A DNA stretch of 43,279 nucleotides from Lama guanicoe (GCA_013239625.1 MU053216.1:2942943-2986221); one strand, 5' to 3'. Shown: positions 251 through 27,756, numbered from the stretch's first letter. A program made the numbers and translations. The notes: a model not told the origin generated them from the sequence alone.

Positions 251-2354
251 GTGTATTCTTGTCGGGTCAAAGGCCGCATCACGTTATTAACATCACCCGA
301 GCGTGCGTCCCGCCCTGCTCTGCGGTGGGGGCCGCTGCGGTTGCCAGTGGCATCATGCAATGTATGGAGTGTAAGTCGATTAATTTCTATCACAAAATGT
401 ACTGTGGAGGGTTATTGACTTTCCAGAACCTGTAACGTCTAGGCGTATCTAAAATACGTCCAATAAAAGAGCCTTTTCTGTCATGCATGTGCCTTTGATG
501 AGAGCTTTTCCTAGAAGACCCAGGGTGGAGTCTCACCCTAAGTCTACTGTGTTGACACTAAAATCTAACTCTGAGTGACTTGGTCCCCCCATTACCCTGT
601 TCCATCCTCACAAAACCAGGCACATCTAATGGCATATGCTATGGTTACAGATTGACAATAAAACAGAGGTCAGCAAACATTCCAGGCACTCAGGGCTGTT
701 TCCCAGTTTGTCCAACTCAGCCCATTCACCACTGGGCATCTGACAGTTGTCCAAAAGCCAGAAAACCTGGGATACCCACATACTCTTTCCTTTTGTTGTT
801 TTCTTTCGGTTTATGTCAGTGGTTTTCAAACTTTGGGACTCATGGAATTACTATACACAGTTTTTTTTTCTTTTTGATAAGCCAATTCAATTAAGCCAAA
901 CTTTACAGGTTTTCAATTGTATCTCAACATGGCAAATCATGGACTTCAGGACTTAAAATGGCTTTTTAAGCTGCAAATCGACCCCAAGACGGCCAGTACG
1001 GCTGCCTACTGCTGACACTGCAGCCTCCTTCACTCGGGCACCCCAGCAACCAGCAGCCACCGTGTATCTGAGCTGTCTGTGTGCCACCATCACGGCAGGC
1101 GTCTTTAGCTGAGCATCTCTGATTCTCACAAAAACAGGAAAAGACGGATATAACAACAGCCATTTACAGAAGAAAAGCCAGAAAGCAGCCCTTTGGAGGT
1201 CACCTGGCTGAAAAACAGTATAAAAACCAAACCCAACCGACACGGATCCAGCGTGCGGCTCCTTCCACCAGGATGTCCCACAGTGATGGCCTGAGAGGGG
1301 ACTGCCCGGTTCAGGAGTCCACTAGACAGGGTCACCGCCACAGCCAAGGCCGTGTGGAGGAAGGCCACTTCCATGCTGTTTTTGGTACGATCTCTGCTTT
1401 GTCCACAGCCCACGATGGCAGCGGCGCTCTCGGGCGCTGCCTCCACCACGGGCAGGTCTCACGTTTGGTCCAGCGTCACCTCGTGCTTTACCTGTGACGC
1501 AGGCGCTGTTTCATCCACGGCGTCTCATGGCGAGGCCACACAGCATGCCCAGGATGACCAGCCTCACCGGGGGCAGAGACTTGGCCCAGTCTCTTGGTCT
1601 TCGGGCGCATTACTCTACACCCGAACAAGCCAGGGTCGAGCCGCTAGGGGTTCAGCCTTCAGGGCAAAGGTGGCTGAAATACAAATGCCTCAGGACCCTC
1701 CAGTGTCTCTTGTCCAAGGGTAGTGACGTTGGGCTGCAGATTTGTTGAAAGGGATTCTGAGACAAAACGCATGATGCACATCCTTGAGTGAAGGATTCCA
1801 ATAAAAATCTGCCCTTTCAGTTGGGACGCGTTCTGAACACTGAGGACCAGAAAATGTCTTTAATGAAAGTGTCTTGCTTTCCTCCAGGCCCTCCCTGGAT
1901 TCCCGTTTAAGACCTTTCATGTTGTCTCTGAACGGTCTATCTGATAATGAGAATTCTTGCCTGATAACAGAGTTGAGCCACGTACTGTCGCTAATTCAAA
2001 CCATCACATTTCGTAATTGGAAATCTATAGAGGATTTCACAGCAAAATGAGGCCAAAAGACAAGCCTTTTCACTATGTTATAATAAGTCACAAAACAAAG
2101 CATTTTTTTTTCCAGGTCACCATTGCATGAGCAATTCCTTTTAGCCAAAGAAGTTGTCTTGAGAACAAAACTTTATCTTGAAATAATAAATTTGATTTAA
2201 AAAAAAATAAGACAGGGCCTGGCAGAGTGAAGGAAGTGAGTTCTCTCTCGGTGGGCAGACAGAAAACTCCGAAGGCTGCGAGCAGTGAGGCTGGCGAGGT
2301 CAGGGGACTAAATACAAGGTGTGGGATACTTGTCATTTAATTTTTTAACTTTAA

Positions 2355-6729: not shown

Positions 6730-7649
6730 GAAAGATCTGTGCACGTGATGAAGCCGGAGCACGGCATTGTGATGCAGGTATCACAGCAAGATCTCTTTAA
6801 ACTGTTAGGGGAGAATTATCATTAACCCCTTACGGACTTAACGCGCAGAACGCTTCCCATTACTCTCTAACTTTGTGCACCTATTTAAAGAAATTGCACC
6901 TGGTATGTAATGATGCGGCAACAGAGGTGCAGCTGGTGGAAGTCATCGTAAGTGACGGTCCTGTCTGCCAATTATGTCAGAGAAAAAAGCCTCGGCCGTA
7001 TGTCAAAAGACTAGCTTTTCACTTCAAACAAAACTTTCAATTCATGTAAGCGATATTTTGTATCTCTCCACTGTCCCCGCCGTTTTGATTTGTCAGTCAC
7101 TAGCGGGTTGAATCCACTCGAATAAGGTGGATTTTACTGGACTCTCTTACTAGGACGTTCCCCCAGGGCAAGCCCAGAGTAACACAACACGCATGTTTAG
7201 ATGATTTTAAGCGAACCTCAAAACCTACAGTCCCATTTCCTCTAATGCTGATTTAATCAGCACGCGGCAGGCTTCCTGGAACCCTAGTGCGCAGCATTGC
7301 TACAGCGCCTTGCGACACCCCGAGAAGCCTCTTCATTCCTGTCACCCGAGGCCTGGGGAAGGAGAACAGTAAACGCCTTGCCTACCTTCTGTGCACAAAG
7401 CCAGGAGATCTCCTTCCTCGCAAAAGGCTGATACACTTGTCCCAAGCAGATAATTGACTCATTGGAAACTAAAGAAAAAGACCTCAAACTAGAACCACAA
7501 GGACAAAGAACACAGAAAGGTCTTGTAACTTGAAAGAAAAAGTCAGCAAAAACGTCAAGGTTCTTTGGAAGAAGAGAGAAGTTAACCTCCCCGCAGAGAT
7601 CTTACTCCTTTCTTTGTAAGCAGACTCAACACCCCCTGAAACTCTCTTG

Positions 7650-7886
7650 ATTGCATATAAAAGACCTGAAGCTGGCAGAAGTGAGCTCTCAGCTTCCTTG
7701 ACTTGACTTGTTCTTCTGGATTCCACCCTTGGGCTCTCCTTGGAGCCCCGCTCCCCCACCCAATCAGGCCGCTTGGGAGCCAACAGCTGTGCTGAGTGCT
7801 CACTGCTGACACAACAGTGTGAGCTCTGTGGTGATTTCCATCCCTTCCCAGATTCTCAGAAGCCACCTGACTTGGAGCTGGCCACC
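7650..7886 (+). promoter_or_regulatory. Proximal promoter / 5' UTR of ATP6V1G3
   Basis: TATAAAA at 7656-7662, CCAAT at 7760-7764 and Kozak GCCACC at 7881-7886 upstream of exon 1. The TSS cannot be determined from sequence. Confidence 0.5.
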
Positions 7887-7968
7887 ACGGCCAGCCAGTC
7901 CCAGGGGATCCACCAGCTCCTCCAGGCAGAGAAAAGGACCAAGGACAAGCTCGAGGAAGCCAAAAGGA
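7887..7968 (+). CDS. ATP6V1G3: ATP6V1G3 coding exon 1 (start codon reads ACG)
   Basis: GCCACC-ACG-GCC AGC CAG TCC CAG GGG ATC CAC CAG...; 27 codons + 1 nt, then donor GTAAGC at 7969. Confidence 0.93.
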
Positions 7969-8699
7969 GTAAGCCCCCTCCTGTCTGCCCTGTGAGGGAC
8001 TGGTCACAAAACGGATGAGGGGCGTGCAGGAGGAGGAGCGCGGACCTCTCGAACAGGTTACTCCCTGGTTCCGCCACGCTCTCGGGGAGACCGTGGCCAG
8101 CTCACTAAAGCTTCCCAGTTGCATGTCTCCCATCACTAGAGTGGGGATGAATTTCCCCAGCCCAGATCTTTTGGCCACATCGCACTCCGTGGGAAATGAT
8201 GATGGACGCTGAAGTTGCAGAGACTCGGGCTTGAGCTTTGCCTCCAACTTCCCTAAAGCCGCCACGCCTCGGTGTCTCAATGTTGCAGAATGGTTAAGAA
8301 AGGACAGGCCACTTCCAGACCGAAGTGACGGACTAGTGAGCGAGCTTGGGCAAGTGTCTTAGCCTCTGTAGGCATCGGTTTCTGTTCTGCACATTGTGAC
8401 AAAGTTACATTTGTTCTCCCTTTCTTGATGGTTTTTAATGTCCAACCTTTAAAAATATTTCCATTTTATTCTCACTTTCTGATTTCTTGTTATTTGGTCA
8501 TTCATCTACGTGCTTACCCAGAGAATGTTTCTTTGACATTCACAGCAACCACACGGATTAGGCATAATAACTATATTTCCATTTCACTTATGCAGAAATT
8601 GAGAGTCTATAGTTTGCCGACAGCCATATTTTAAAAAGCAGAAAATAGGGTGCCAGGCCCATGCTCATCTTGTTTACTTACTTACTCCTTATCTTATTT

Positions 8700-8835
8700 A
8701 CTCTTCACACCAACCCTCTTTGCAAAAAGGGGAAAGTGAGCTTAGAGAAATGATGCAACTTGCTCAAGATCACACAGAGGTTAATGGTAGAGACAGGGTT
8801 TGGTGGGGTCTGATCCCCCAGCCACAATCTAAACA
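8700..8835 (-). mobile_element. MIR SINE fragment
   Basis: ggggaaagtgagcttagaga...aacttgctcaagatcacacag. Confidence 0.6.
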
Positions 8836-9687
8836 ATGGCACTGTACAAAATGTACGTGATTTTCGTAACGAATAAACGAATGTCACAGATCTACACCCC
8901 AAATTCTGGTCCCTGGGGGCCAAGATCTCTGTTTCCCCCACTGTCCCATTTCACTCACATCCTTACTTAATCTCCAACATGGTGTGTCATTTACCTTCCT
9001 AATTACATGTCCTGTCTCTGCAATTAGATTCCAAGCCCTGCCAGACAGGGATCACGTCTTAAAACGTTGCTTGTGTAAGACCTTGGCTGCGTGAAGAGAT
9101 CAGAACAGAGTCGGTATTGACAGAAGCTTGTTTCAATGCATTGAATGTAACGTGGGCACAGGACGTGATAGTGTAAGAAAGGAAGGCAAGGCAGGCACTC
9201 ACTACTCAGTCCCCTGGGGTTTTCAATCACATATAAAGTCATTTTCCTTTCTTAAGATCAGTTGATTTCCTGAACACTCAGCAATGTGGGCACCAAAGCA
9301 CAAAAGAAAAAGAGTCCACGTGGAGGTGCTGGAAGGGAAAGGGAAGGCTCAAGCTAACGAAGGCAAACTTGACCAACTTCTCCATTTTTTTTTTCGCTAC
9401 AACAAACCATGCAAATGATGGCCAAATGGGATGAACACAGAGTAACTGTTGAGAAAACAAAGCAGCCCAGGACCTGCTGGTTGAAACAGTGTAGAAAACT
9501 CCCTTATCTTTTATTCAAATTTCTTTTCTATATTTAAAATGTCCAGAACAGAAGATCAGTTTATTTTAAGATGTGGTCATTATGTTACCATTCCTTCCTC
9601 AAGATGGAAGAAACAAAATGACAATATTGAGCACATAGTCAATATTGTCATTTGATCCAAATGATACTTACCACCTATCTCTCATTT

Positions 9688-9830
9688 TTCTTTAATTTTT
9701 GAGGGGGAGGGAGGTAATTAGATGTATTTACTTATTTATTTTTTTAATGGAGGGACTGGGGATTGAACCCAGGACCTACTGCATGCTAAGCACCTGCTCT
9801 ACCACTGAGCTATACCCCACCCTTCCCCCT
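9688..9830 (-). mobile_element. tRNA-derived SINE (camelid vic-1-like) with 12-bp target-site duplication
   Basis: Minus strand reads gtatagctcagtggtagag (A box)...gggttcaatcccc (B box) followed by an A-rich tail; TSD tatctctcattt at 9676-9687 and 9831-9842. Confidence 0.9.
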
Positions 9831-10805
9831 TATCTCTCATTTCTCAGTCATTAGAGAGGCACTGGGAATCAGGCAAGTCATTTGGAGGTGGGAACCTCTC
9901 AGAACAATCTAACCTCAGCTTCCACAGGAAAGGTAGAAGACAGGCTATTTTTCCCTCCCCTTGGTCAGTATGCTGTGTTCGGGCAATCTCTCCTCGGAAG
10001 TCAGTACCGGAAGGTCCATACTGTATTATTTGTATACACAATGTTCATTTTGTTGACCAGTCACTTAAAATACTTATGTACTTTTTTTTCTTGGTCTTTG
10101 TTCATAAATCTTTGAACAAATATCAACCAGTAATAGTAAATACCCTGGCCTTAAAAATATTTTGGAAAATATCTTTCCAACTGTTGTTTCAACCAGTGAG
10201 CTCTGCGCTCACTTTCTCAGAGGAAGCCCGTCCTCGGCCTCAGGGAGCACGGGCTCGGGGGCCGTTTTCACCGGATAGACGGGGGCCGTTCCCTGCCCAG
10301 ACGCCACACGCAGGGGCGGCTAGGTGACAGCTCCGGGGCCCGTGCCCGTCACTCGCTTCTTCAGCTCGCCGCGGCCAAGTGCAATGCTGCCTTGTGTACC
10401 TGCTATTTCGTAGCTTTTCTGCTATTTCACTATTTTTTTTAATTTTATTTATGTGTTTAATTCAGTAAGTACTTGTTGGGTGCCAGTGATTTTCAGGCTG
10501 CTCTGGTATATTCACTGATGAGAAGACCTTCCTCAGAAGACTCCCCCACGAGACAGATGTGGAAATGCCATGCGAGGTACAGAGAGCCGTCATCTTTGTA
10601 AACCCATAGATTTACTCGCTTTTTTTCCAAAAAGAGATTCATTTGAAAATCTGACACAGAGGCAGAACAGAGACTCAGAACGGCAACTAACCGATCGCAG
10701 CAGCGACACACTTGCAGGCTTAGCTTCACCATCTCCTTCCTAAATCCGTTTATTTACAAGACTTTCAGAACTTACCCTGCTAGAGCAAGGCTTGTGAGTG
10801 TATTT

Positions 10806-10962
10806 GTAAAATTTAATTAATTAATCAAATTTTTTTTGGCAGGGAGAGGTAATTAGGTTTATTTATTCATTTATTTATTTCTTAATGGCACTACTGGGGA
10901 TGGAACCCAGGACCTGTTGCGCGCTAAGCATGCACTCTGCCGCTGAACTAGACCCTTCCCCC
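10806..10962 (-). mobile_element. tRNA-derived SINE (vic-1-like)
   Basis: Same head (gaacccaggacc...gctaagcatgcactct) and aggtaattaggttt tail motif. Confidence 0.85.
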
Positions 10963-12599
10963 TGTGAAATATATTTTAAAAAGGGAGAAATGGAGGGAGG
11001 GAGAGAAAGACAGAGAGAGAAAAAATAGTAAGTCACATGTTAATCATTTTAGAAAAACACAAGGTTAACATAGTGCTAGTATGTACATATGATGTTGCAA
11101 AACTATGAACATATTCCATTCAGGAGGACAGCCTCAGATCCCAGGGAAGTTACTCCACAGTCCTGTACGTGTGTAAATGCTTTGCCTTTCGGGACACAGA
11201 CAAGGGTGTTAGGGGCTCTCCTGAAGGCTGTTAGAGCCGTGGAAATGCAATCACAGGTCCCTGCTCTCAAGACTCCAGCTGCAGAGAGGTGGGACTGGCA
11301 GGCTGGTTTGCTGTTGGGGGGGCGTGGTACGGAAGTGCGGATATCCAACAGACTCGCAAAGCTGGGCTGTGAGGCAGCAGAGTAGAAAGAGCACCGGCTT
11401 TTTCCTTTTATTTCTTTGTTTAAGTTACTGAGCATCTCTGAGCTTCCATCTTTGCTTTTTTTAAAAAAGAAAACAGAAATATACAGAAGAATAAAATATT
11501 ATATGTAATATTTAATATGTGTGACCAGAATGCTTTAAGGATCAGAAAAATGGTACCTAAGGTGGTAGAGTAAAAACTAATGAGTTAGTCTTCTTTTTAA
11601 TTTATACAGTATGTATACTTGTATGTGACTGTAGGTAAAAGCAACAGAAGACTGGAGTAGGAAACCAGAAACAACAGTCTCGTTTCATCCTTTTTTACAG
11701 CGGCTGCAAGTTCTCGGCCAACTTTTCTGTTTTCTGTTGGGGGTGGGGGGGCTCAACTTTTCTTCCAGTGAGGAGACCAGCGCTGCTTCTAGTAAAATGA
11801 GTGAAAGAACTCAGACGTTCGCCTCTATTCACTGAGCGTGGATTGAATGGTATTTACTAGTTAAGACACTCACCCAAATTTTTATGTGTAAAACTGTTTG
11901 AATTTAGGTGGAATTGCAGTAGGTTGGCATTATTTTTTATTATTTTTGTTTACCTCTTGCTACGGCATTATTTTAATTTATCTCACTTGAAGTTAACACC
12001 TTTTGCTTAAAATTGTGCATCCTTCAAAACATAAAAGTGAGTGTATTGGTCGACGCAAGTTACACTTTCACAACAGAGCATCGGACCTGCCCTGGAGCTC
12101 CAGCTTTGGGGAAATTACCTGCATCTTTGATCAGAATTAGAATAGGAAGTCAGGGCCCCCTCATCCATGTCTTCTCTGAAACACGTGATTTTTTTTTTTT
12201 TACTTTAAGTTACACCTTTTAAGAGCACAGTGTCTATTTCATTTACACCCACTGCAAACCTGGGAGGCTCTACCGTTCGGCCCTAATGCTGTCATTTGAA
12301 CTGTTCCACGTCACATAAAGAATCCATATTCCTGACATATTTCCAAACGTGCACCGTGGCCTCCCCCACAAATTAACACTCCACCTGTCTACTCTGGCAG
12401 CTGCGGTAAATAACGTTTGTGTTTAACCCAAAATTACAATTTGCATTATGGGATACAGATCAAAAGATGCGGTAAACATAAATGTTCAAATCTGGGCATG
12501 AGAAACACTGAACAAGCAGGTATAAGAAAGAGGTTCTGAAAGCTCTGGGCAGTCTTAATAAAAGCGAGGGTCGCGACCCTGGGGTGTCTGACCCAGACA

Positions 12600-12850
12600 G
12601 CGCAGACCCCCCTCGCCCCCAGGAGCAAGCGGCGGCTCCGGCTACAAGCCCAGCTCTCGCCTCCGACTGGCCGGGCGACGTGGGGCCGGCTATCCCTGAG
12701 CCCCCTGGTCTTTCCCCTCCTGAGCCTCACGGCGGAGGTGGCCCCGTCACCCTCAGGGAGTCGTCCTCACGGTTAGCTGAGCTAACGCTTATCAAGGACT
12801 TAAAACACGCCTTGGTCCCCAGCAGGGGCTGCACCCGTGTCAGCTGGGAA
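12600..12850 (+). mobile_element. MIR SINE, strongly GC-shifted
   Basis: ctgagcctca...gttagctgagctaacgcttatcaaggacttaaaacacgcct follows the MIR 3' half. Confidence 0.55.
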
Positions 12851-13985
12851 AATTCCTCCACCGCTTAGTGAAAAGGGTTCTGTGCCGGGTCCAGGGCAAT
12901 CGCAGGGCCCCCTCTGATGAATCCAGCACGACCTTCTACTGAATTCTACTGCAGTGCAAATAAAACAAACAGATAAAATAATTTAAATGTTTCTGTGCAT
13001 TGAGTTGTACTCCAGTGCAAACTAAAGCCTTGAAATAGTTCTGCTTTCTCCCTGGATAACTCATCAGCAAACACAGTGAGGCATGTTCACTTCTGTGGGT
13101 CTCGAGGAGGCCTCCCGCTGATTTTTTTAATCACAATTTGAATTGCTGATTTATTTCCAAATATACAGAGATTCCAAATTATTTCACCAAGCACCTTGGT
13201 TTAATAAACGCTTCACTGTGCCAGGGAGTGTTTTGATTCGTGAAGACATAACTTCTAATAAACGAATAAAATGAAAATTGTTATAGGAGAAATTCACGAC
13301 CCTGCTCTGTATGTTTTGTAGGCCTGTAAATCCTTCCTTCTTCTTACAGTCCACAGACTAATGGGTATTCATGGCTACGCTGGCCTTTCATTTCTTCGAG
13401 TGGGTCATATTAAAATAATAACCACAGGACATTTTCATTTATTAATGATGTTTGGTTATATTCAATCCAGGATCTACACAAAACTACTTAAGTTTTATTT
13501 TTTTAATAAGGATGTACAAGAAAAAGGAATAACAAAGGATTCACAAAGAAGTCAGAGGTATGAAAGGAGAGATGTGGTTCAGCAGAGAAGCATGGGAACA
13601 CTCAAGGTGCCAAAAGAGAGGTGGCTCCTTTGTTTCCTGGTAACGGACCACTGTTCCGAAGTTTGTAGGGCGAGCAGAATAAGAACGCTCTTTGAATGAG
13701 GTTGTTTGTGTCATCACATTAACCACCCCCAAAGCCAAGAAGGCCTTTTCTTCTTCTATTTGGTAGAGCAGAGTGAAAATGTGTAATTAGTAACACACAG
13801 AAATCTTCAAACATTCCCAGAGTGTCCTCTGTGTTCAGACCACATCAAGGTGGCCTCTGCTCTGTCTGTGCATTTTTTTTTCAGGCGGTGCGTTCATTTG
13901 GAAACATACTCCTAGTACCACACTCAAGCACGTGACTTTGCATCTGATGCTCAACTGACCTTGTGTGTCTGTGTCTCTGAGCCAC

Positions 13986-14441
13986 TGTGTTAGCTTCCTA
14001 GGGCTGCTAAACAAATCACCACAAACAGGGTGGCTCCCAACCACAGGCGTATATTAGCCTCCAGTTCTGGGAGCCAGAAGTCCAAACACGAGCTGGTGGT
14101 TCCTTCCTCCAGAAGGAACTGAGGAAGGATGTGTCCACGTCTCTCTCCCAGCTTCTGATGGCCGGCAGCCCTTGGCTTTCCTTGGCTTAGAGCTGCATCA
14201 TTCAAATCTCTGCCCCTGCCATCACATGGCCTCCTCCCCGCATGTCTGCTCTGTGCTGCTCTGTCTCTGTGTCCAAAGCTCCCTCTCTTTATAAGGACAC
14301 CAGTTATCAGATGTAGGACCCATCTTAATCTAGTAGGACCTCGTCCTAACTTGACGACATCTCCCAAGACCCTATTTCCAAGTAAGGTCACGTCCATTAC
14401 GATATAAACACACCTTGAAGGACACAGTTCAACCCACAACA
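13986..14441 (-). mobile_element. MaLR LTR (MLT1-type solo LTR)
   Basis: Termini tgtgttagcttcctagggctgct ... acagttcaacccacaaca; internal tataaggacaccagt and ctatttccaagtaaggtcac motifs. Confidence 0.85.
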
Positions 14442-14549
14442 TCCTCTTGACAAACCCACTTGACCATCTTGAGTCCTTATCTTCTTTGTCTGTTTTTGTA
14501 ACTGAAAACTTCTCAAAGAAGATGCCTAGATTCCCTGTGTCTGCATTTT

Positions 14550-15800
14550 TAAATTCCATTCTCTCCGAAACCCACTCTAATCAGGCTTCAGTCCCTCCAA
14601 CTCCACCAAAGCTTCTCTTGCGAAGACCAGCAGTGTTGCTAACCCCAGTGAATCAGCTTTCTCTGTCACAACGGGGTCCGTCTCTCATCTTTGAAGCTCT
14701 CCCTTCACTGGCCTGCATGACCCCGCCCTCCTGCTCGGCCTTCCTCTACCTCCCCCCCTCCCTCCAGAGTCCAGCCCCCACTTGGACTTGTTCTGTCCTG
14801 CATCCGCAGACACTTCCCAGGTGATCACACCTAATCCTACGACTTCAAATCCCGGCTCTAGGCTGATGTTCCCCAAACTTCAGTATTTCCAGCCTGACTT
14901 GCTTCCCTGATCTTCAAATTCACATTAACATCCGCTTTCTCACCATCCCCACCAGATATTTAACGGGCGTCTCAAACTGCATTCTTGACCCCCCCACCAA
15001 AATAAAATGTCGGAGCCGTCATTGATTTGTCTGTCTCTCCTGCTTCTCCATCAACTCTGCCTTCAACGTCTGTGTCACTTCGCAGCAACTGCACGGCCAC
15101 TTCACCACTGCCAGGCATCACTAACATTTGTCTGAATTAGTGCAGTAGATTTCAAACCACTCTCCCTGCATCTTCCTTGCTCTTACAGTCTCTTTCGCCA
15201 CACCAGCCAAAGAACTCCTTTTAGATCATAAAGAACATTATGCCACCCATTGGTAAAAACCCTTCATGGATTTAGCGTCTCAAGGACCGAGATCCTCGCC
15301 CTCCCCAGGAGAGCTCTGTGACCTGGCCCTACTGCCACCTCTGTGATAGTCCTCCTGACATTCAACCATTCTGCTCTTTGACCTTTGACCCAGCCATGAT
15401 GATGTTTTTACTGTTCCTTGAGCGTGTCAAATGCCCTTCGACCTCAGGGTCTTTGCCCTGCTGTTCCGTCTGCCTGGAACGCCCTTCCCTGTCAGGCGTT
15501 TGCATGGCTAGCTGTCTTACCCCTTGGGGTCTCTGCTCGCATGGCACATCCTCTGAGAGGCTTGCCTGATCTCAGTTAGCTTCCAGCCACCTCTCTGTCC
15601 CGATGGCTCCTTTATTCCTCCGCCCAGGACTCATCACCCCGTTGCACTGTGTCCTCCTGTCAGTTTTCCATTTCTACCTCTCCCTGCAACAGTCGGGATG
15701 CCATGAGAGCAGAAAGTGTGTCTGCCTGTGGTTTTCACTGCTGTATCGGGACCTAGAAGAGTGTGCGACGTGGCAGACCCCCAGGAATGATGGCTGACTG
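14550..15800 (+). mobile_element. L2 LINE 3' portion
   Basis: cctcagggtctttgccctgctgttccgtctgcctggaacgccctt, ccatgagagcag...ttcactgctgtatc and a degenerate gaatga tail. Confidence 0.75.
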
Positions 15801-15909
15801 AGGACGGCTCGTTCACATCCAGTCCGTGTAGCATCTGTTGGCCACCTCCTCTCTGGGCTGTTCTCTATTCTGGTTCCCCTCCGACTCCGGTGACTGCTCT
15901 CGGCTTTTC

Positions 15910-17835
15910 CTGACGCTGTTCTTCCTGTTCTCATCCTCCCAACGTCAGCGCCCCCCTGCGTCCGCCTCGGCTGAGACCTTAGCCCTCTTTCCTGCTCATT
16001 CTGTGCACGCCCCTTGACTTTGTCCCAAACCCACTGCGCCGCCTCGAGCACGCCAGACCCAGATGACACCAAAGCAGAGCTCGTCTCCGTTTCACACCTT
16101 TCTCCTGGATTCCAGACTTGCCCGTCCGGTTGCCCTCTGGGCATCTCCCTGTGGGTGACCTCAGGGAAGCCCGCAGGGGCTTTTTTGGGTGACAGCCCGG
16201 AGCTCTCTCCTCAACCCCCGCCTTCCTCACTGCCTTCCTTCTTAGCAAACGGCCCCGGGAATCGGTCTTTCTTTCCTAATAATGATTGGAAATTGTTGAA
16301 CATTCTTCATCAAGCACTATGTATGTGTTGCAAATCCTTCCGATGACTCTGCAGTACAGCATTAAATCTGTTTTACAGGTGAGAAAGCTCAGGTTCGGAA
16401 ACTACCTTGCTCGAGGTTACAAAGCTTCTAACGTTTTACTGTAGTGGTGCCCAGGGTACAGTTCTGATTTCTTTCTGAAACGATCAATGAAGCCTCTCTT
16501 CCCTTCAGAAAAGGGATCCAGAAGCAGGTTAGCAATCCCAGCATGGAGCGGTGCTCATAAGCATCTTGGGGCCCTCAGCCCCTCGGCTTTTTCTCACCAA
16601 GAAGCCGAGCGGAACCCGGCGCGCAGCCCTGCCCACTCCCCCAGCCCCGGGAACAGAGCTCAGTTCTAACCTGCCCTAAATTGATTTTTTAATCCTTTCC
16701 CCACAATCACCTGGAAATCAGTCCAAACACCTTCCTTTCCTAATTTTCCTCCCACAGAACACCCTATGGAATGTATCTCAGCAACGGCTCGTTGAAAGCA
16801 TGGTGTAGCAGACCGAACGTCTAAAAGCGAATGATTTAAAGGGGAACTATTTATAAAGAGTTCCCAGAAACAACTGACGCTGTTCTTCCTGTTCTCATCC
16901 TCCCAACGTCGGCGCCCCCCGCCCCCGCCTCGGCTGAGACCTTAGCCCTCTTTCCTGCTCATTCTGTGCAGGCCCCTTGACTTTGTCCCAAACCCACTGC
17001 GCCGCCTCGAGCACGCCAGACCCAGATGACGCCAAAGCAGAGCTCGTCTCCGTTTCACACCTTTCTCCTGGATTCCAGACTTGCCCGTCCGGTTGCCCTC
17101 TGGGCATCTCCCTGTGGGTGACCTCAGGGAAGCCCGCAGGGGCTTTTTTGGGTGACAGCCCGGAGCTCTCTCCTCAACCCCCTCCTTCCTCACTGCCTTC
17201 CTTCTTAGCAAATGGTCCCGGGAATCGGTCTTTCTTTCCTAATAATGATTGGAAATTGTTGAACATTCTTCATCAAGCACTATGTATGTGTTGCAAATCC
17301 TTCCGATGACTCTGCAGTACAGCATTAAATCTGTTTTACAGGTGAGAAAGCTCAGGTTCGGAAACTACCTTGCTCGAGGTTACAAAGCTTCTAACGTTTT
17401 ACTGTAGTGGTGCCCAGGGTACAGTTCTGATTTCTTTCTGAAACGATCAATGAAGCCTCTCTTCCCTTCAGAAAAGGGATCCAGAAGCAGGTTAGCAATC
17501 CCAGCATGGAGCGGTGCTCATAAGCATCTTGGGGCCCTCAGCCCCTCGGCTTTTTCTCACCAAGAAGCCGAGCGGAACCCGGCGCGCAGCCCTGCCCACT
17601 CCCCCAGCCCCGGGAACAGAGCTCAGTTCTAACCTGCCCTAAATTGATTTTTTAATCCTTTCCCCACAATCACCTGGAAATCAGTCCAAACACCTTCCTT
17701 TCCTAATTTTCCTCCCACAGAACACCCTATGGAATGTATCTCAGCAACGGCTCGTTGAAAGCAGGGTGTAGCAGACCGAACGTCTAAAAGCGAATGATTT
17801 AAAGGGGAACTATTTATAAAGAGTTCCCAGAAACA
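15910..17835 (+). repeat. Tandem duplication: 15910-16872 (963 bp) and 16874-17835 (962 bp), about 99% identical
   Basis: Both copies start ctgacgctgttcttcc and end gagttcccagaaaca; the ORF track shows near-identical ORF pairs offset by 963. Confidence 0.97.
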
Positions 17836-18440
17836 GAAGGGGTCGTCTTGCCATTTTTTTTTTCTGATGCCAAAATACACTGTCCACTCCCATGTCTGTC
17901 CTGGCTAATGAGTCTCTTCAGTGTAACAATTTTCTCCTCAGACACCTTCCCTGATCCCCCCTGGCGGCTCCTCTGAGCCCCCACCCTGCACAGGTGGGTC
18001 TGTTTGTTCGTCTTCTTTACTAACTCTGCTACCACAAGACATGGCATGACCACCGGCGTGCGGGCAAGCACCGATTCTCAAGAATTTTAGTAGGAGAGGT
18101 TTCCATAAATGTAGTTTTTCGCTGTCACAAAACACACTGAACCAAGACTTACATTCCATTGTCTTCATAGTTGGTTTTGTGCCTTCTTGACAATCTTATG
18201 CATTTTCTAATTCTCCTCATGGACGCTGGAGCAGCATGTACGTATTTCCAAAATACACTGCATGCATGTCAGCTAGAAGCAAAAGCCGTATCGCACGTTT
18301 GGTTCTGGCCCTCTGTGTAATATGCAGCAAGTACTCAATAAATACTGAATGAATAATGGATGGATAAAGGGAAGCCAGCCTTTCCCACACCACTCGGCAG
18401 CACCTGCTCGGGAGTCTTTTTAATCACGATGAGGGAGCAC

Positions 18441-18540
18441 GGGGTGGGGGGGTGTAGCTCAGTGGTAGAGAGCGCGCTTAGCTTGCACGAGGTCCTGCCT
18501 TCAGTCCCCAGTACCTCCGCTAAAAAAACAAACAAAAAAC
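18441..18540 (+). mobile_element. tRNA-derived SINE (vic-1-like), short form
   Basis: ggtgtagctcagtggtagagagcgcgcttagcttgcacgaggtcctg...ccccagtacctcc plus A-rich tail. Confidence 0.88.
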
Positions 18541-20685
18541 TTTCTAACGTAATAAAATCATGACGCACGAGTTGTCTCATTTTCTAAACCAAAAATCAGG
18601 ACATTTGGCCTCGTGTGACCTTATAGGAAATTGGGGACCAATATGTGACTGTTCTATTTAAAATCTGGACTGTCCCAAAAGGTCACCCCTGTGTTTGAGA
18701 GAGAAAGTATTGAGAAATAGGAACGTGATCTCATTTGGGTTCCCAGCAGCCACGCTTTTAATGCTTAAAGAAGGAAGAGGTGCAATTGTAAAATCTGGAA
18801 GGTTCCCATGCAGACGCAGAAGCCAGCAGCGGTCAGGCCATGCGGGCTGGCTGGTGCCCTGCGCCTCCCCGCCGCGGGCCGCCCGAGGTCCCCGTGGCTC
18901 CCCTGTTTAACTGAATGAGAACCAGCAGGTGACCGGCGCCACACGGGGGAAGCAGGCGCACTCGGAGCTCACGCAGCCTCCGAAGAGGGGCGCCAGCTTC
19001 TGCGCAGGGGCCGGGCACGCAGCGCTTTTCCTATTATTAGTTGTTGTTGTTTTTTTTAATGTGCTCGAGTTGCAACTTGGAAACAAGTACTTTTACACAA
19101 TATGCAATTAAGATGGAAAGTAATGATGTTTTATGTGCTTTTTGCTGAATCAGATAGTGTCCGACCACTCGTTACGTAACCCACAGCACGTTCCGACTAA
19201 GAAATCTTCTCGCCTCTTACATACATTTTTGTCCTCATGTTAGTGACAAGCAGGGATAAGAAAGTGAGCTGGGGGCTAGGAATGGTTTTCCTTGCCAACA
19301 TTTCGCCTGTTTGTCCTGTGAACGGCGTGTGTGTGGTTGCCAGGAAGTGGTCAGAGCTCCAGAGGGGAAGAAAAGTGTACATACAAGATGGTAACGAGCA
19401 TGAATTGAGGAGGAAAAAGGAAAGCGTTACTGGTAACGTTCCATTAAGGCTCAGTCATTGGAAGAACACTCATTTTCACTAGACCTTGGATTCTAAGGAC
19501 AATTAAGACAGAGCTAAATATGCGTTGTGAATGACGTCTGCTCAGTCCCGCTCAAGGGTAAGAGGTACTAAAAGAGACACATTTTAGTGTGTAACACAGT
19601 GAGTGTCTCTTGTCCACACATATACAGCGACTCGCAAAGCAACTTCTGTGCAGCAGGAAGAGAAATTTAGGACTCATCTCTGCTCAAATGCAACAAAGTT
19701 ACACAAAAACAAAGCCATGTAAACCTGTGTATCTAGATGACAGATAAGGTTTATGTTAAGATTTTCTTTCATGCTACTTAATGAAAACACATTTAGTTCC
19801 AAGTCTACATAGTGCAACAAACCATTGACAAAAATTATAAACCAAAGCTTAAGAGATCTTACCAGAAGAAAAAAATGATGTTAAACGGGCAAATGAATCA
19901 AGGCATTTAACTAAAATAGAAAGACAATAGATTCTGAAGAAAATTAGTTTCAATACAGTTCAGAGATTTTTTAAAGTTTTAATGATCACAGAGCGTTAGT
20001 ACCTAGCTTCCCCGAAGGTGGTGGGTGGTAAGGGCTGAGCAGTGATTAACATGACTCTGTCACTCCCCCCCAATACTTCCTCTGGTTGTCAAAAAAGTCA
20101 TGTGCTTACCTAATGATCTCCACAGTTTTTCACATTTTTCTGAAACTTTCATCTACCGTGCTATCTGCTGGCTTAAGGCTTACACCTTTGCTCTTAATAA
20201 AAGAAAAGAGAGCTACTTAACTAAATCTCCTAACCATTAAAACCGTTGGTTTTACAACCACTTTCAAGTCCCCCTCAGAGAAAGCGACTACAAAAAATGT
20301 CTACTTTGATGTGCTTTGGGGCTTAATCAGACATTCTAGAGTCAACACACGGTAAGGAAAACACCCCAATAAAATGCTTTAAAAAACTGTAAGTTGGTTT
20401 GAGAGAGTCTGAGCCACATGTTTGTAGTGCCGGTTGGAGGTCTGCCAGCGTTAAACAGATTCATTTGGTGTGGACTGAAGGATTCCTGGCAGCAAATCAG
20501 GACAGCAGATCTGACCAAATAATGTCTTTCTGAGTAAGTGACAGCTCAGATCTGCTCTCTGGCTGTTACTCCTGTGATAGTAAACGGGAAGATATTTCAT
20601 TTAAACATGTGAGTGTAAAAGAAAGTTGTCATTTCCGTGTTCGAAAGAATCCAGTTGAAAAAACAAGGAATTTTTCAGTATTGCT

Positions 20686-20926
20686 TGTTTCTAAACAAAG
20701 GGCATCATTTGAGGCGGGGGGGGGGAGCATCTGAAAATCATGTAGACCTCACCTGTATTTCTAAAAAGCAAGTTTGAAATTCTGTATGCTGAAGAGAAAT
20801 CTGTCATGTTTCTAAACAAAGGGCATCATTTGAGGCGGGGGGGTGGAGCATCTGAAAATCATGTAGACCTCACCTGTATTTCTAAAAAGCAAGTTTGAAA
20901 TTCTGTATGCTGAAGAGAAATCTGTC
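20686..20926 (+). repeat. Tandem duplication of 120 bp (20686-20805 and 20807-20926)
   Basis: tgtttctaaacaaagggc...gagaaatctgtc occurs twice with one G/T mismatch in the G-run. Confidence 0.97.
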
Positions 20927-20952
20927 CTTTCTGTGCCACTGTTAATTTTCAG

Positions 20953-21176
20953 GAAAAGCCAAGCCAAAATGATCAAAGTCGGTATTGTTGCAAATTGCTG
21001 CAAAGGCTTCTGGTATTCCGTTACGATTTCCTTTTCAACTGGATGGCTCCCTTCAACCAGTCTTTAATGAAAATGTAAAGAAATGCTTTTTCATACAGGC
21101 CAAGGAGGAAGCGATGGCAGAGACTGACCAGTACAGGATGCAGAGAGATCAGGCATTCCGGCTGAAACACGCTAAG
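20953..21176 (+). CDS. ATP6V1G3: ATP6V1G3 coding exon 2, interrupted by an insertion at 20967-21096 (in-frame TGA at 20970-20972)
   Basis: Acceptor ttttcag at 20946-20952, then GA AAA GCC AAG. Coding resumes CAG GCC AAG GAG GAA GCG ATG at 21096 and ends at donor GTGAGC at 21177. Confidence 0.9.
20967..21096 (+). repeat. 130-bp direct copy of intron-2 segment 21647-21776 inserted in exon 2
   Basis: aaatgatcaaagtc...aaatgctttttcatac at both sites, offset 680 bp, 4 mismatches. Confidence 0.95.
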
Positions 21177-22429
21177 GTGAGCGAGACGGCTGGCACCGAT
21201 TTCCAAGCAGCTTAGATGGTAAGACACTAACATCCATGAACAGTGATAAGATCTTCATCTTCATAAGGTCCGACGCAGGATATCAGGAGAGAACATATCG
21301 GATGGAGCAAATAGACTTCACCATGGCTGAACCGCAAATCAAATCAGAAACATCCCAGAATCACCGATTTGACGTTTTCACATTCGTCATAGAGACTGTC
21401 AATCCATAGTTCTTATCTAATACATCGTATGTGTTAAAAATCATATTCTCAGATATACAAGTTGATGGAATTGGTTAGTTTTATTCCTACTACAGATGAT
21501 TGACTAACACATTTTAGTAAGAAAAAAATACAGAGAACTTTTTTTTTGTCTATTAATGTTTACTAGTAGAATCAATAAAAAGTGTTGAACAATGTTCTAC
21601 AGTGAGCTTGTTAGGCCAAATTTCCTTTGGTTAATTCAAGATTTATAAATGATCAAAGTCTATATTGTTGCAAATTGCTGCAAAGGCTTCTGGTATTCCG
21701 TTACGATTTCCTTTTCAACTGGCTGGCTCCCTTCAACCAATCTTTAATGAAAATGTAAAGAAATGCTTTTTCATACGTTAGCGTTTAAAAAATATCTGCA
21801 GTTTACAGTAAAATACATAAGTGCAGGAATTTTTCAGAGCTGATTTGCAACATGAACTAAAAGGAATTATTAAATTCCGTGTGCCATAACTAAAGTTGAT
21901 GTATTTTCTCTTTGGCAAAAACACAAATAAAGGTCTGTGCAGAAGCCTGACACGGCAAGATGAACTGCAAGCAGTTTGTAAATCTCTCCGTTTACAGCTT
22001 TGATTTTAGTGGGAGTCAATGCAGAGCTTGCGTTAGATCAGGTGAATGAGATCCCACGATAGGAAAAACTTTTCCAACGGGCTGTTTCTTGAAACAAAAG
22101 GGCCTTAGAATAAAGTGGACCACTCAGCAAAAATAAATTCTTCTTATCGATATTTGGAAAAAGGAATCATAGACTCCCCAGTCCACACAAACACATACGC
22201 CCCCCACAACTGCCCTTCGGCTCTCTCTCTGACCTGTGGGCTCTGAGTGTCATGCACTTGCCTTTGAAAGTGCAGATATTTTTTAAATGCTAGTGTAGGG
22301 AACAGCATGTCTTTATATTTTGTATGAAAGTTTTATTGAGTGGAGCCAGCTAGTTGAAAAGAAAATCATAAGGAAATACCAGAAGACACTATCAGCAATT
22401 GGCAACAATGTCTACTTTGGTCATTTGTA

Positions 22430-22855
22430 ACATATTCTACTCCCTTTGTCTCTACTTGTTCTATTCTAGCCACATGTGTCTCCCTGCTCTTCCCCAGGTG
22501 AACTGAACAGGCCACTGCCACAGGGCCTTTGCATATGCTGTAGCCACTCCCAGGAATCCTCTTCTTTCACAGACATTCATTGCTCTTTGATCTCTGTTCA
22601 GTTAGTTGTTGGCTCTTGTTCTCGATCACCTTATCTAAGATTGTGTCTCTCATAAAAAAAGAAAGTACTAATTATAGTCATAGCATTTATCACTACAGGA
22701 TATACTATACATTCACATTTTTTGCTTATTGATTATCTTTCCTTCTGGACTGTAAGCACCAAAATGGCAGGTTCTTTATTTTGTTCCCTGTTGCTTTCCT
22801 AGACGTTACTGCCCCATTGTAAATACACAGTAAGTATTCATTGAAAGAATGAGTA
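22430..22855 (+). mobile_element. L2 LINE 3' end
   Basis: ctgccacagggcctttgcatatgctgt...ggactgtaagcacc...taagtattcattgaaagaatga. Confidence 0.75.
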
Positions 22856-22999
22856 ACTCAACATTTCTTCTATGCTTTTATCTTTCCTATTGAGTCCTGT
22901 CATAACCATGACTTATTAGGATCCAAAAAATAATCACCCTTAACGCCAATCAGCTTTTCTGATCCTGCAGAAGATATTTCTAACATATGAATTATTCTT

Positions 23000-23177
23000 C
23001 TTCTTTAATTAATATACTTTTTAATATTTTATTTTATTTATTTTTTGTTTTTGTTTTGGGGAGAAGTAATTAGGTTTATTTATTCACTTACTTATTTTAA
23101 TGGAAATACTGGGGGTTGAACCCAGGACCTTGTGCACGCTAAGCATGTGTTCTACCACTGAGCTACACTTTCTCCCC
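23000..23177 (-). mobile_element. tRNA-derived SINE (vic-1-like)
   Basis: tactgggggttgaacccaggaccttgtgcacgctaagcatgtgttctaccactgagctac with a T-rich tail upstream on the + strand. Confidence 0.88.
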
Positions 23178-24605
23178 ATATTATTATTTTTTTTAAATAA
23201 TTACAAAACTGACCACAATTTTAGAAAGTGGTTGGGTTTAATCTCTTGAAATATTACGTCTCATGAAGAATCTCATAAGATGTAAGTCTGGCTCATGGTA
23301 TTTATTCTCTGAGCTGGAGAATAATTAAAACTCCTCACCGCTCTCAGAATGAGAGCTCTAAGCCAATTTAACAGCTAGTTGATCAAAATCTCACATAGGA
23401 AGGTCAACGCATTCGGGCCTCTGTGGCTTCAAGCATATTGTGAAGCGTGAGCCCAGCGCCTTCCCGCCACGGCCCGCGGGGGCCACACGCCGCTGTCCCG
23501 CGCGGAGCTCGTGGGCGCTCACCCGGGGCTCGGAGGAGCTCCCGGAGGAGCCCCGGGAAACCAGTTTCCCACCTGCTGTGGCTGCTGCCCCGCAATGCTA
23601 CTCTTTTGGGTGCTTCTTAGCTCTTGCTAATGTATGTTTTTTCCACACCCCCTGACTTATTTTCCACCCCCCTCCTTTATCAGTAGAAGTGAGTATCCCA
23701 AGGTGGGCTGTATATCAAGGAATATTTTTATAACAAAGATTTACTTTGCTATCTCCTGCTGTACACTTATCCCTTATTTCACTTTGTCTCTTGCTAAACT
23801 GCAGCACCACTCAGCAATAAGAAGGATCAAACGAATGATACACGTGACAGCTGGGGTGATTCTAAGAAGAAGCTCTGCTGAGGGAAGAAGGCGGCCGTTC
23901 ACACTGCAGGGCTCCGTTTCTGTGATTCTCTCAGAAAGACAAAACCGCGGTGATGGAGCTCCTGCGGCCATCCTGCAGGACCTCGGAAAGTCCTGCAAAA
24001 TAACATCCTCTACTGGAGAAAACAGTACTTGGCCGAAAAGAGATCTGGACTGCAGTGGGAAGTTGTATCTACTGTTAATGCAAGTAAAAGTTAGACGGAC
24101 CATGAATCTGAACAAAAGATCTAAAAAATGTCTTTTTTCTTTCTTTCTAAATTCCTATCATGAAAGCATTTTTGTTTCCTTGAAGCAACCACAAGTTGAG
24201 AATGCAAGACTGTGTGAGACCTGACCCTCTGGTTTCCCTTAAATTGGAACATTTGAACAACTTACAAGGAAACTTATTGAACGCTGAAAGATTTCGCCAA
24301 CACCATCAGTCATTACTCTGCAAAGCTGCACACAGCGGCCGCAGCACTGAAGGGTGGGAAATTTGCCTGGAGAAGTCCTCAAACGGCACCCTTCGGCCAA
24401 ACATACCAAGTTCCATGTCACATAATTATCGACTTCTAATTTATATAGTGTCCCAAATACTCAGGCAGCAGGCTTCGGCCGACGAGAGCAGTAGAACACA
24501 GGTAATCAGTTCTCCCTGATGCCTGGTGAGCAGCTCATTCTATTCTGTTCAACAGGGATGCACTGAGCACCTACTATGTGCCAAGCAGTGTTCGAGGCAC
24601 TTATC

Positions 24606-24762
24606 TTTTTTTTTTAATTATTTAGTTAGTTAGTTAGGGTTTTTTGTGGAGGGGATAATTAGGTTATTTACTTAGTTTTTTTTTTTTAACAGAGGTACTG
24701 GGGTTGGAACCCAGGACCTTGTGCATGCTAAGAACATGCTCTACCATTAAGCTATATCCTCC
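24606..24762 (-). mobile_element. tRNA-derived SINE (vic-1-like)
   Basis: gaggtactggggttggaacccaggaccttgtgcatgctaag...ctaccattaagctata; atcttttt flanks both sides. Confidence 0.88.
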
Positions 24763-25878
24763 ATCTTTTTCTTTTCTTTTTTAATACTATAGAAAAATTT
24801 ACGTCACTTATATGGGTCATTGGTGGCTCATATTACAATTCTATTGGGCAGCACCACTCTGCATACTTTGCACACATGACTCTGGTTGACTTTTTACAGC
24901 AGTCCCATCAAATGGGTGATGTTCTGATGTTATCCGTATTTAAAAAATAAAGAACATAAGGTTGAGATGAACTTTTCCAAAGTCCTTCAGGATAGCTGCA
25001 GTAATCTAGCCTAAAAATAACCATTTTTAACACTGCTCCTAAGAAAAATAGATAATCATTTCGTAACAGTTTGTCTTTTAAATTTTTCACCACTTAAGAC
25101 ATTGTATTTAGGAAAAGTAATTTTTTTTTTTGAGTTTGGTAGAATCTCACTTAAGATATTGGATTTAGAGGAAAAATCTGATTTTGGTAGAACTATTTTG
25201 GTAAGTAGTTCTCTATTTTCAAACTTCCTTGTAGCAAGGGAAATTTTATCCAAATGTCTGTTGTTCCTGCATGCATACTTACCAAAATGTAATTTTATGA
25301 AAGCTATTTGATGTCTTAGAAGCTGTATCTCCTCAAAATGATTTTCTTTGAACTAGGAAGCCCCTCTTGCCCAGACTGTAAACAGGAAAGAACCGGAACC
25401 GGACAGCCTCAACTGCTTTCTATTTCAAATTCAGGGCCCAGAAAGATCCTGTGGATTCTAGGATTTAGAACAGTCTAACAACCTGGCAGTAAAAATCAGT
25501 CATTAGTGGAGTCCTCTTGGATTAAATTAAATGCATACCTTCCCTAAACACTCACAGGAGAGAAAAACAAACAAACAAAAACCAGCTGTGTCACCTAATG
25601 ATGCCCTGTTCAAGAAAGGCTGAGTTTACGAAGGAGATAAATTAGGAGCTGGCTGTTGGCTTCAGCAGTGGATAATTTCACAGAGGGTTTCACTGAAGAA
25701 TCCTTTTAAATTGGTAACTCTCCTGGTAAAATTGCATTTCAATCTTGTCATTCCTTGACAGGGAGGCTAAGAGACAGAGGATGAAGTAGGAAAGACCAGA
25801 ATCACTGCCAATGACAGAACAACCAGAAAGATGAGTTACGCTGAGTCTAGAATCATCATGGAACCAAGTGGACAAGTA

Positions 25879-26364
25879 CAGCTCTTCCTTGACCACGATG
25901 GGGTTACGTCCTGACAAACCCACTGTAAACTAAAAATAGCAAAGTCGAAAATGCATTGATGACATCTAATCCATCGATAACACAGCCCAGCCCAGCCTAC
26001 CCTAAACGTGATCAGAACACTATCATCAGCCTGCAATTAGGCAAAATCATCCCACATGGCCTATCTTATAATGAAGTCTTGAATAACTCATGGAATTGAT
26101 TGAATGCAGTACAGAAAGTGAAACAGAGAATGGTTGTCTGGTGCAGAATGGTTGTGTGAGTGAGTTGTTGACGTTCGTGGCTCCTGGGCTGGCTGGGAGC
26201 TGGGGCTCACCACTGTCGAGCATCGCCGGAGAGCGTCCCACTGGACATCACTGGCCTGGGGAGAAGCTCCAGAGGCAAGTTACGGTCCCTGCAGAATACA
26301 CTATCACTTTCTCACCATCAAAAAATTCTGAGTCACAGCATCAAAATTGGGGACCAAATGTCTG
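25879..26364 (+). mobile_element. TcMar-Tigger DNA transposon relic (MER47/Tigger5-like)
   Basis: TA-cag ... ctg-TA boundaries; cgatggggttacgtcctgacaaaccc and gtcgaaaatgcatt match the family as recalled. Confidence 0.75.
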
Positions 26365-27066
26365 TATATCTCAGTTTGAAAGAAATCCAGTTTATACCAA
26401 AATTTTCAAGATTATATCCATTGCCTAAAAAGATATTTATCTGTGCATGTAGAAGCATCTCACTGGGCATACTGCGGCTGTATCTTTCTGAGAAACAAGA
26501 TTTAATCAGTTCAGATAAAGTATTTTAAAAATTGACAAGCCAGTTATTTGCTCTTTAAAAACCAGCAAAAATGGATTGAAGTCTTTCAACTTTATTGTCC
26601 AGACTTTTAATTCAGAAAGCAGTAGGGCAGATACGGGGACTCAATTACAAAACCATGAAGAAACTTCTGCGTGTGGTGTAATGGCTGTGAACTTTTTATT
26701 TGATTTCTACTGTGCAAAGGTCACCTTGAAGCAGAGCTCACATGCCATGGCCAGCTTCCATTTGCTCTTTTTAATTGAAGTATAGTTGATTAATAATATT
26801 TCATTAGTTTCAGGTGTATAGTATAGTGGTTTATTTTTGTTTGTTTTGTCTTGTTTTTTTTTTCCAATTATATTTTTTAGAAAAGTTTATCCATCCTCCT
26901 CATAGCATTGCTGATCTTGTCCGTTCTCTGAGAGAATTCTGGAAAAATAACACATACACCAGAGAACAATCACCCATAAACAGGTGAAGACAAGTTTAAC
27001 TTGCAAAACAATGAGACTGTAATCCGAAGCGTCATGTGGTGAACTCCGTCTGTTCTGTTCTGGTAG

Positions 27067-27324
27067 ACGATGGGCTCCCAGAGCAATCTCTCCAGAGAGA
27101 TAGAAGCACAGACACTGAGGAAGATAAAAGAGCTGGATGGGAGCCACAGCACGTCCATGGAAAGTGTCATCAACCGGCTTTTGAGCATCGTCTGTGATGT
27201 GAAACCGGAAATCCACTCGAACTACAGAGTCACCAACTACACAAGCACTCCGTTGTTCAATAAACAGTGTCTACATGCCACCTCATTGCTATGGCTCCTG
27301 TTTATAGTAAGAGATGTGACATAG
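27067..27324 (+). CDS. ATP6V1G3: ATP6V1G3 coding exon 3; ancestral stop position (27238-27240) reads TAC and the frame continues to TAG at 27322-27324
   Basis: Acceptor ctgttctggtag ends at 27066; 57 codons align to the G3 C-terminus ending ..NYRVTN; matches ORF track 27070..27324. Confidence 0.92.
   Translation, partial: TMGSQSNLSREIEAQTLRKIKELDGSHSTSMESVINRLLSIVCDVKPEIHSNYRVTNYTSTPLFNKQCLHATSLLWLLFIVRDVT
27259..27264 (+). terminator. Candidate polyadenylation signal AATAAA (a second one lies at 27655-27660)
   Basis: Canonical hexamer 18 nt after the ancestral stop position; usage unknown. Confidence 0.35.
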
Positions 27325-27756
27325 ATGTCTTAAATTTGCTAGGCACCTATGGGTTTTAATGTGATGTGGTCCATACATGAGGACTGTATTTAAAAGCCAA
27401 CCAACAAAAAGTTGTTAAAGCTTTCCTGGTCACAGGTACGACCTTGTCGCTTAACTTGGAGCAAGTCAAGAAGGCAGGGTAACATATTTTGGGACACCTG
27501 AACGAAAAAACATGGACCCAACCATTTTTTAGTGAGTGGGTGTTGCTTTTTTAAATTTCTTCTCCTTTCTATCAATTTAGAAAATATATTCTTCATTTCA
27601 GTTGCTAAAAGATTATCTTTAAGGGTGATATCATCATTTCTCCAATAGATACACAATAAACATGTGCTCAGGGTTTTATTTAACTCATTAATCAGTGAGG
27701 AAACCAGTAAGATGTTACCACTAGTTCAAAGAAAACACTAAGAACTTCATAGAGAA

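Follow-up and report, generated by a model that had tools for sequence, protein, structure and literature searches.

Probable loss of ATP6V1G3, the kidney-enriched G subunit gene of the V-ATPase, in Lama guanicoe, with start and stop changes recurring across camelids

Does the genome of Lama guanicoe still hold a working ATP6V1G3, the gene for the G3 isoform of the V-ATPase peripheral stalk? G3 is kidney-enriched and ranks with the markers that single out renal intercalated cells most specifically; its paralogue G1 is ubiquitous. The question arises from a stretch of 43,279 nt (GCA_013239625.1, MU053216.1:2942943-2986221; the window hereafter, with positions counted from its first letter), where an original prediction had recognized an intron-containing copy of ATP6V1G3 with one lesion in every exon and had proposed a lineage-specific gene loss. 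Our analysis, which rests on sequence comparison, indicates that the locus is very probably a unitary pseudogene in the Lama guanicoe genome. The parts of the gene on which this reading depends are as follows.

7887 to 7968, plus strand: coding part of exon 1 (27 codons and 1 nt), followed by the donor GT at 7969-7970
20953 to 21176, plus strand: exon 2, between the acceptor AG at 20951-52 and the donor GT at 21177-78
20964 to 21095, plus strand: block of 132 nt (44 codons) inserted in exon 2, its boundary placed from the Camelus gene models
27067 to 27240, plus strand: coding part of exon 3 (codons 62-118), after the acceptor AG at 27065-66; coding sequence at 27067-27237, then TAC
27241 to 27324, plus strand: read-through of the former 3' untranslated region, 27 codons after the TAC and then TAG at 27322-27324

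At the start position (7887-7889), where all intact orthologues carry ATG, the locus reads ACG (Thr). The conserved G3 N-terminus, ASQSQGIHQLLQAEKR, comes after this codon, whose context is GCCACC-ACG-G; the exon 1 codons ACG-GCC-AGC-CAG... are translated as T-A-S-Q-S-Q-G-I-H-Q-L-L-Q-A-E-K-R.... ATG is absent in every frame across 7601-7968, and the exon 1 frame is closed upstream by an in-frame TGA at 7704. Exon 2 is 224 nt long, as against the 101 nt expected from 118-codon orthologues with equal intron phases (354 - 82 - 171). Its frame opens R-K-A-K-P-K-TGA, with the stop (20970-20972) coming after ...RRKAKPK, six codons into the exon. Codons 28-31 (RKAK) run to 20963; from Q35 (CAG, 21096) onward the exon again reads normally, in an unchanged frame, as Q-A-K-E-E-A-M-A-E-T-D-Q-Y-R-M-Q-R-D.... 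The 132-nt block, which holds the TGA, stands in place of 9 nt (R32-L33-R34 in Camelus), and the replaced codons 32-34 belong to a basic stretch that is the best conserved in the exon. Exon 3 reads T-M-G-S-Q-S-N-L-S-R-E-I-E...N-Y-R-V-T-N and then TAC (Tyr, 27238-27240) at the stop position of the orthologues; an AATAAA at 27259-27264 lies 19 nt past this former stop position and ahead of the new TAG, the next one being found at 27655. The four splice sites are all canonical. These direct readings bear out the observations of the original prediction, namely the ACG at the start, the exon 2 insertion with its in-frame TGA, the TAC at the stop position and the four preserved splice sites.

That this is ATP6V1G3 itself follows from several independent comparisons. 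The translations of the three exons match the Pfam family V-ATPase_G (PF03179) in colinear order (profile positions 1-25, 33-58 and 60-105), with E-values of 3.5e-6, 9.6e-5 and 1.7e-7 and scores of 28.0, 23.3 and 32.2 bits for exons 1, 2 and 3, respectively, that of exon 3 being above the cut-off of 28.6. The match of the three pieces to the family is far above chance, and the profile positions left unmatched (26-32) coincide with the site of the exon 2 insertion. In a whole-genome search, intact G3 from a whale showed 83%, 75% and 77% identity to the locus for exons 1, 2 and 3, exon 1 aligning to whale residues 2-30. Of the 33 candidates from a protein search with exon 3, eight reached E <= 0.001: seven carry the name V-ATPase subunit G3, and one is an unnamed G-subunit protein of the fin whale. 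Exon 3 is 98% identical to G3 of Vicugna pacos and 93% identical to that of Camelus ferus and C. dromedarius, confirming the supposition that the genome is camelid, and 70-80% identical to whale, sheep, muntjac and hyaena G3 (79-80% for the intact 118-aa whale and ruminant proteins). The exon 3 sequences of G1 and G2 from the same genome are only 42-44% identical to whale G3, as against 77% for the ATP6V1G3 locus. The expected PTPRC neighbourhood is also present, with a CD45 domain (PF12567, 72.9 bits) approximately 106 kb away on the same contig, on the opposite strand and head-to-head. The three exons are separated by GT-AG introns (approximately 13 kb for intron 1 and 5.9 kb for intron 2), as the original prediction had held, and a retrocopy origin is therefore ruled out.

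Six-frame searches of the whole genome, with exon 3 and with intact whale G3 as queries, detected no second copy of G3, intact or otherwise, in the 2.05 Gb searched, an absence that is not absolute in an assembly fragmented into 55,231 contigs. The other G-family matches in these searches were G1, G2 and three intronless G1-like copies. Assigned by their best PDB match, the paralogues ATP6V1G1 (contig C3686) and ATP6V1G2 (contig C5172) share the family and the three-exon structure of G3 and are intact, with an ATG, no stops and normal ends; they are the likely functional substitutes. One of the intronless G1-like copies, on the minus strand of C55231 (28840792-28841139), has a complete ATG-to-stop frame of 118 codons that differs from the G1 exons by two residues and may be an intact retrogene; the further copies (C8676 and C8876) have lost a codon, or repeat internally and lack an ATG. 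As sequence, structure and position all match G3, the locus is the ATP6V1G3 of a South American (Lamini) camelid, present in single copy, with its introns and in its syntenic place.

How does the locus compare with a gene that works? Intact amniote ATP6V1G3, as in Eubalaena glacialis, Ovis aries and Muntiacus reevesi (118 aa), has the same three-exon layout, the same intron phases, the same PTPRC neighbourhood and the same PF03179 family assignment. Unlike these genes, the Lama guanicoe locus lacks the ATG, has 44 codons including a TGA where codons 32-34 should be, so that the 118 codons of a functional gene are interrupted, and has no stop at codon 119. The best 120 matches to whale G3 come from placentals and marsupials, a monotreme, birds, turtles and crocodilians; a length of exactly 118 aa is seen in 80 of them, and 104 begin M-x-S-Q/P-S-Q-G.

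Whether the lesions are errors of this assembly, and how old they might be, was judged from gene models of other camelid assemblies rather than from raw reads. Thr takes the Met1 position (...P-A-T-T-A-S-Q-S-Q...) in the models XP_031531738.2 of Vicugna pacos (170 aa), EQB78245.1 of Camelus ferus (223 aa) and XP_031294134.1 of C. dromedarius (a RefSeq model of 204 aa, labelled 'partial' and without Met), and Tyr occupies the stop position (...R-V-T-N-Y-T...) in these three and in KAB1258690.1, a second model of C. dromedarius. Because the loss of start and stop recurs in three other species, these changes are not sequencing errors, and here too the original prediction was right; because it is seen in alpaca, wild Bactrian camel and dromedary alike, it would predate the camelid radiation. 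Exon 2 tells a different story. Three Camelus models show it uninterrupted (R-R-K-A-K-R-L-R-Q-A-K-E-E; RRKAKRLRQAKEE), whereas the K-C-F-L-I-Q-A-K-E-E of the alpaca model maps by tblastn to 21081-21176, the 3' end of the insertion. As it is present in alpaca and absent from the Camelus models, the insertion belongs to the South American branch alone. The proposed lineage-specific loss thus holds in this restricted sense for the exon 2 insertion, and has to be widened for the start and stop, whose loss is pan-camelid. Judging from these models, we consider it reasonably likely, with real room for doubt, that the gene had already been inactivated in the camelid ancestor.

Where the exon 2 block came from can be read from the surrounding DNA, in which three further features are relevant.

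21647 to 21776, plus strand: putative source segment of 130 nt in intron 2, 97% identical (four mismatches) to 20967-21096
21687 to 21804 versus 22267 to 22385: imperfect inverted repeat in intron 2, with arms 81-84% complementary and approximately 460-565 nt apart
20686 to 20926, plus strand: tandem duplication with a unit of approximately 121 nt; the two copies are 99% identical and both include a poly-G run of 8-9

Both a repeat finder and alignment placed the intron 2 copy on the same strand as the exon 2 copy and 680 nt downstream of it. A DNA search of the whole genome with 20960-21100 found exactly two places, exon 2 itself and the intron 2 segment, and the insertion was judged to be neither foreign nor transposon-derived, the sole other genomic copy being that in intron 2. 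One arm of the inverted repeat (21687-21804) takes in most of the copied segment, and we take the intron copy to be the source because the similarity of this arm extends beyond the end of the duplicated block. The motif CAAG precedes both copies on the left side and a C is common to both at the right junction, a pattern that fits template switching during repair or replication. Templated insertions near breaks are known as a general mechanism, in which a short deletion is swapped for a same-strand copy of sequence from a few hundred bases away; the present case resembles them in this respect and in its short motifs near the junctions, but here the mechanism is read from its end product alone. 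The exon 2 lesion is in this sense a clear case of a templated insertion out of a nearby intron. At assumed substitution rates of 1-2.2e-9 per site per year, the 4 differences in 130 positions would put the copying very roughly 7-15 million years back, with a wide counting error. The tandem duplication at 20686-20926 stops 26 nt short of the exon 2 acceptor and is either very recent or an assembly artefact; if genuine, it would be a candidate for a second recent local rearrangement at exon 2.

These observations can be arranged into a tentative course of events. The ATG>ACG and stop>TAC substitutions would have occurred on the camelid stem, and the gene, having lost start and stop, would then have drifted; later, on the Lamini branch after its split from Camelus, a template switch would have placed in exon 2 a copy of 130 nt that lie 680 nt downstream. 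The outcome would be that no transcript offers an AUG for the normal frame and that no functional G3 is made. In readings of the joined exons, normal splicing gives a frame that ends after 33 codons, and either skipping of exon 2 or use of a new AG at 21097-98 shifts the frame into early stops. The authentic acceptor is canonical and unchanged, and normal splicing would therefore include the TGA. An in-frame ATG first occurs at codon 41, and a protein re-initiated there would be without the conserved N-terminal part of the helix. At the other end, the AATAAA at 27259 precedes the TAG at 27322, and transcripts ending there would therefore be non-stop mRNAs.

Possible decay of the remaining codons was gauged indirectly, on the protein sequences, and not the DNA, of other camelids. 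Between the locus and the dromedary, 8 of 115 coding residues differ, as do 5 of 86 residues in the translated leader and read-through. Equal divergence of coding and flanking sequence fits neutral decay, a comparison with little power. The four camelid sequences lie at a mean distance of 0.27-0.29 from 11 outgroup mammals, as against 0.21-0.24 for whale, sheep and muntjac, i.e. the camelid distance is raised by some 20-30%. Where 28 or more of 30 other mammals conserve a residue, derived residues are shared by all camelids at three positions (M1T, E54A and Q59H) and limited to one branch at four (Y88H and A18T in Lamini; K19N and A40V in Camelus); the Lama guanicoe locus, unlike intact ATP6V1G3, thus carries M1T, E54A, Q59H, Y88H and A18T. 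Oddities also occur in G3 records from other mammals: the dugong entry carries the label LOW QUALITY PROTEIN and has 116 aa with two single-residue gaps, the fin-whale model is without the normal exon 2, and the horse entry has 116 aa. These are either cases of independent G3 decay or annotation faults.

A number of observations weigh against a dead gene or limit the case for one. The ratio of coding to flank differences given above is 1.2, the value to be expected if constraint is absent, but it comes from small numbers and has no statistical power (Fisher p = 1.0). The five camelid changes at conserved sites are within the range of 0-7 seen in intact species (7 in elephant), and this count was dropped as a decay test because it is uninformative. 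In Camelus, all 118 codons are in frame with no frameshift, which is compatible with residual constraint; the open frame is weak evidence either way, because 354 nt would, on a rough reckoning, have suffered only about one disruptive event over that time. NCBI annotates the camelid G3 loci as protein-coding. Near-cognate initiation at ACG is possible, and the ACG here sits in an optimal Kozak context. One cryptic acceptor, giving an exon start at 21061, is the sole one with a stop-free in-frame reading. Finally, of 24 sequencing runs listed for 26900-27600, 20 contained part of it: fourteen DNA runs, from six studies and under five organism labels, at least half of the sampled words, and six RNA or possible-RNA runs a fraction of 0.10-0.36 of them, so that transcription of the locus may persist; these unaligned word matches were not used as evidence on the lesions or on expression.

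Could camelids then make a remodelled but working G3, begun at a spliced-in upstream ATG or at the ACG, spliced through a cryptic acceptor that avoids the TGA, and ending in a C-terminal extension of 28 residues? The ACG in its GCCACC-ACG-G setting, the frame-keeping acceptor before 21061 and the protein-coding status of the loci in databases all speak for such a product, as does the existence of one further element upstream.

929 to 995, plus strand: upstream ATG-initiated open reading frame piece MANHGLQDLKWLFKLQIDPKTA, followed by GT; start exon of the alpaca RefSeq model

The Camelus models make no use of this piece. The camelid G3 models in databases all represent the same locus, with the same Thr at Met1 and Tyr at the stop, and present it as coding, yet they open the frame by species-specific upstream pieces, by partial skipping of exon 2 or by 'partial' status. 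Their ATG is drawn from 929-1000 in the alpaca model and from 268-372 plus 4721-4798 in that of C. ferus, and the dromedary RefSeq model has none; a further piece of the alpaca model (K-T-G-T-G-S-G-A) has no counterpart on the plus strand of intron 1 with up to two mismatches allowed. Being inconsistent between species, the upstream ATG pieces are read as gene-prediction work-arounds. Each rescue, moreover, loses or swaps the conserved RKxKRLxQ stretch (Pfam positions 26-32, unmatched), the exon start at 21061 exchanging this basic stretch for unrelated residues; the authentic acceptor, unchanged and canonical, brings in the TGA; and three separate work-arounds would be needed together. A working remodelled G3 is accordingly quite improbable.

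The locus might instead have lost its protein and been kept as a transcribed non-coding RNA with a regulatory role, which would explain the canonical splice sites. All four of its splice sites have indeed been kept, as have two poly(A) signals, and some RNA runs contain, by unaligned word matches, 0.24-0.36 of the sampled words of 26900-27600, but the survival of eight splice-site bases over such a time is expected by chance, and a non-coding role would in any event be in no conflict with gene loss at the protein level; we regard it as very improbable. That some or all lesions are assembly or sequencing artefacts of a draft genome, with the exon 2 block and the 121-nt duplication as mis-joined repeats, is extremely unlikely: a block near-identical to a stretch 680 nt downstream, with tandem copies of 99% identity just before it, makes for a typical place of mis-assembly, but the start and stop substitutions recur in the models of three other species, the alpaca RefSeq model encodes the 3' end of the insertion, and the copies have 4 mismatches in 130 positions, which fits an old duplication and not a collapsed repeat.

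A unitary pseudogene, then, is the reading we retain, and its place in the literature can be stated briefly. Searches of full-text literature centred on ATP6V1G3 and on camelids showed, among the matches listed, no published report of ATP6V1G3 loss, the supplementary tables of gene-loss screens lying outside these searches, and no publication combining ATP6V1G3 with 'camel'; no G3 knock-out appeared among the titles of the matches listed for ATP6V1G3, knockout and intercalated. Part of a bat kidney study (PMC10776631) treats ATP6V1G3 as a matter of expression and not of loss. Large automated gene-loss resources may already list camelid ATP6V1G3. The camelid case is a new example of a familiar type of event; single lineage-specific gene losses are common, and we consider its significance moderate. 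Renal transporter losses have reportedly been described in fruit bats, and these would be the same kind of event, the inactivation of a conserved, tissue-restricted gene in one clade; gene and clade differ, and no ecological or physiological correlate is shown for camelid ATP6V1G3. A crude screen for the V-ATPase subunit d family (PF01992), which is likewise kidney-enriched, found two loci with three to four stop-free exon matches each, a result too incomplete to judge d2.

What would the absence of G3 mean for the animals? If no functional G3 is made, the ubiquitous and intact G1 would have to supply the G subunit of the peripheral stalk in V-ATPase-rich cells. A bolder proposal holds that the start-codon change inactivated G3 a single time, in the ancestor of all living camelids, and that its loss is tied to acid-base or water-saving kidney physiology and not to mere redundancy; this seems to us unlikely, and a causal link between the loss and camelid kidney physiology is speculative and rather improbable. 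For databases, the camelid records named 'V-type proton ATPase subunit G 3' are flagged by this analysis as gene-model work-arounds and not real proteins. If this proposal of an ancestral loss is true, nature has produced G3-null mammals in camels, llamas and alpacas, and their renal intercalated cells, like other cells that secrete protons, would depend on G1 as the sole G subunit; and if this clade of large mammals has been without G3 for millions of years, it would constitute a natural knock-out showing whether G1 can fully replace G3 in acid-secreting cells.

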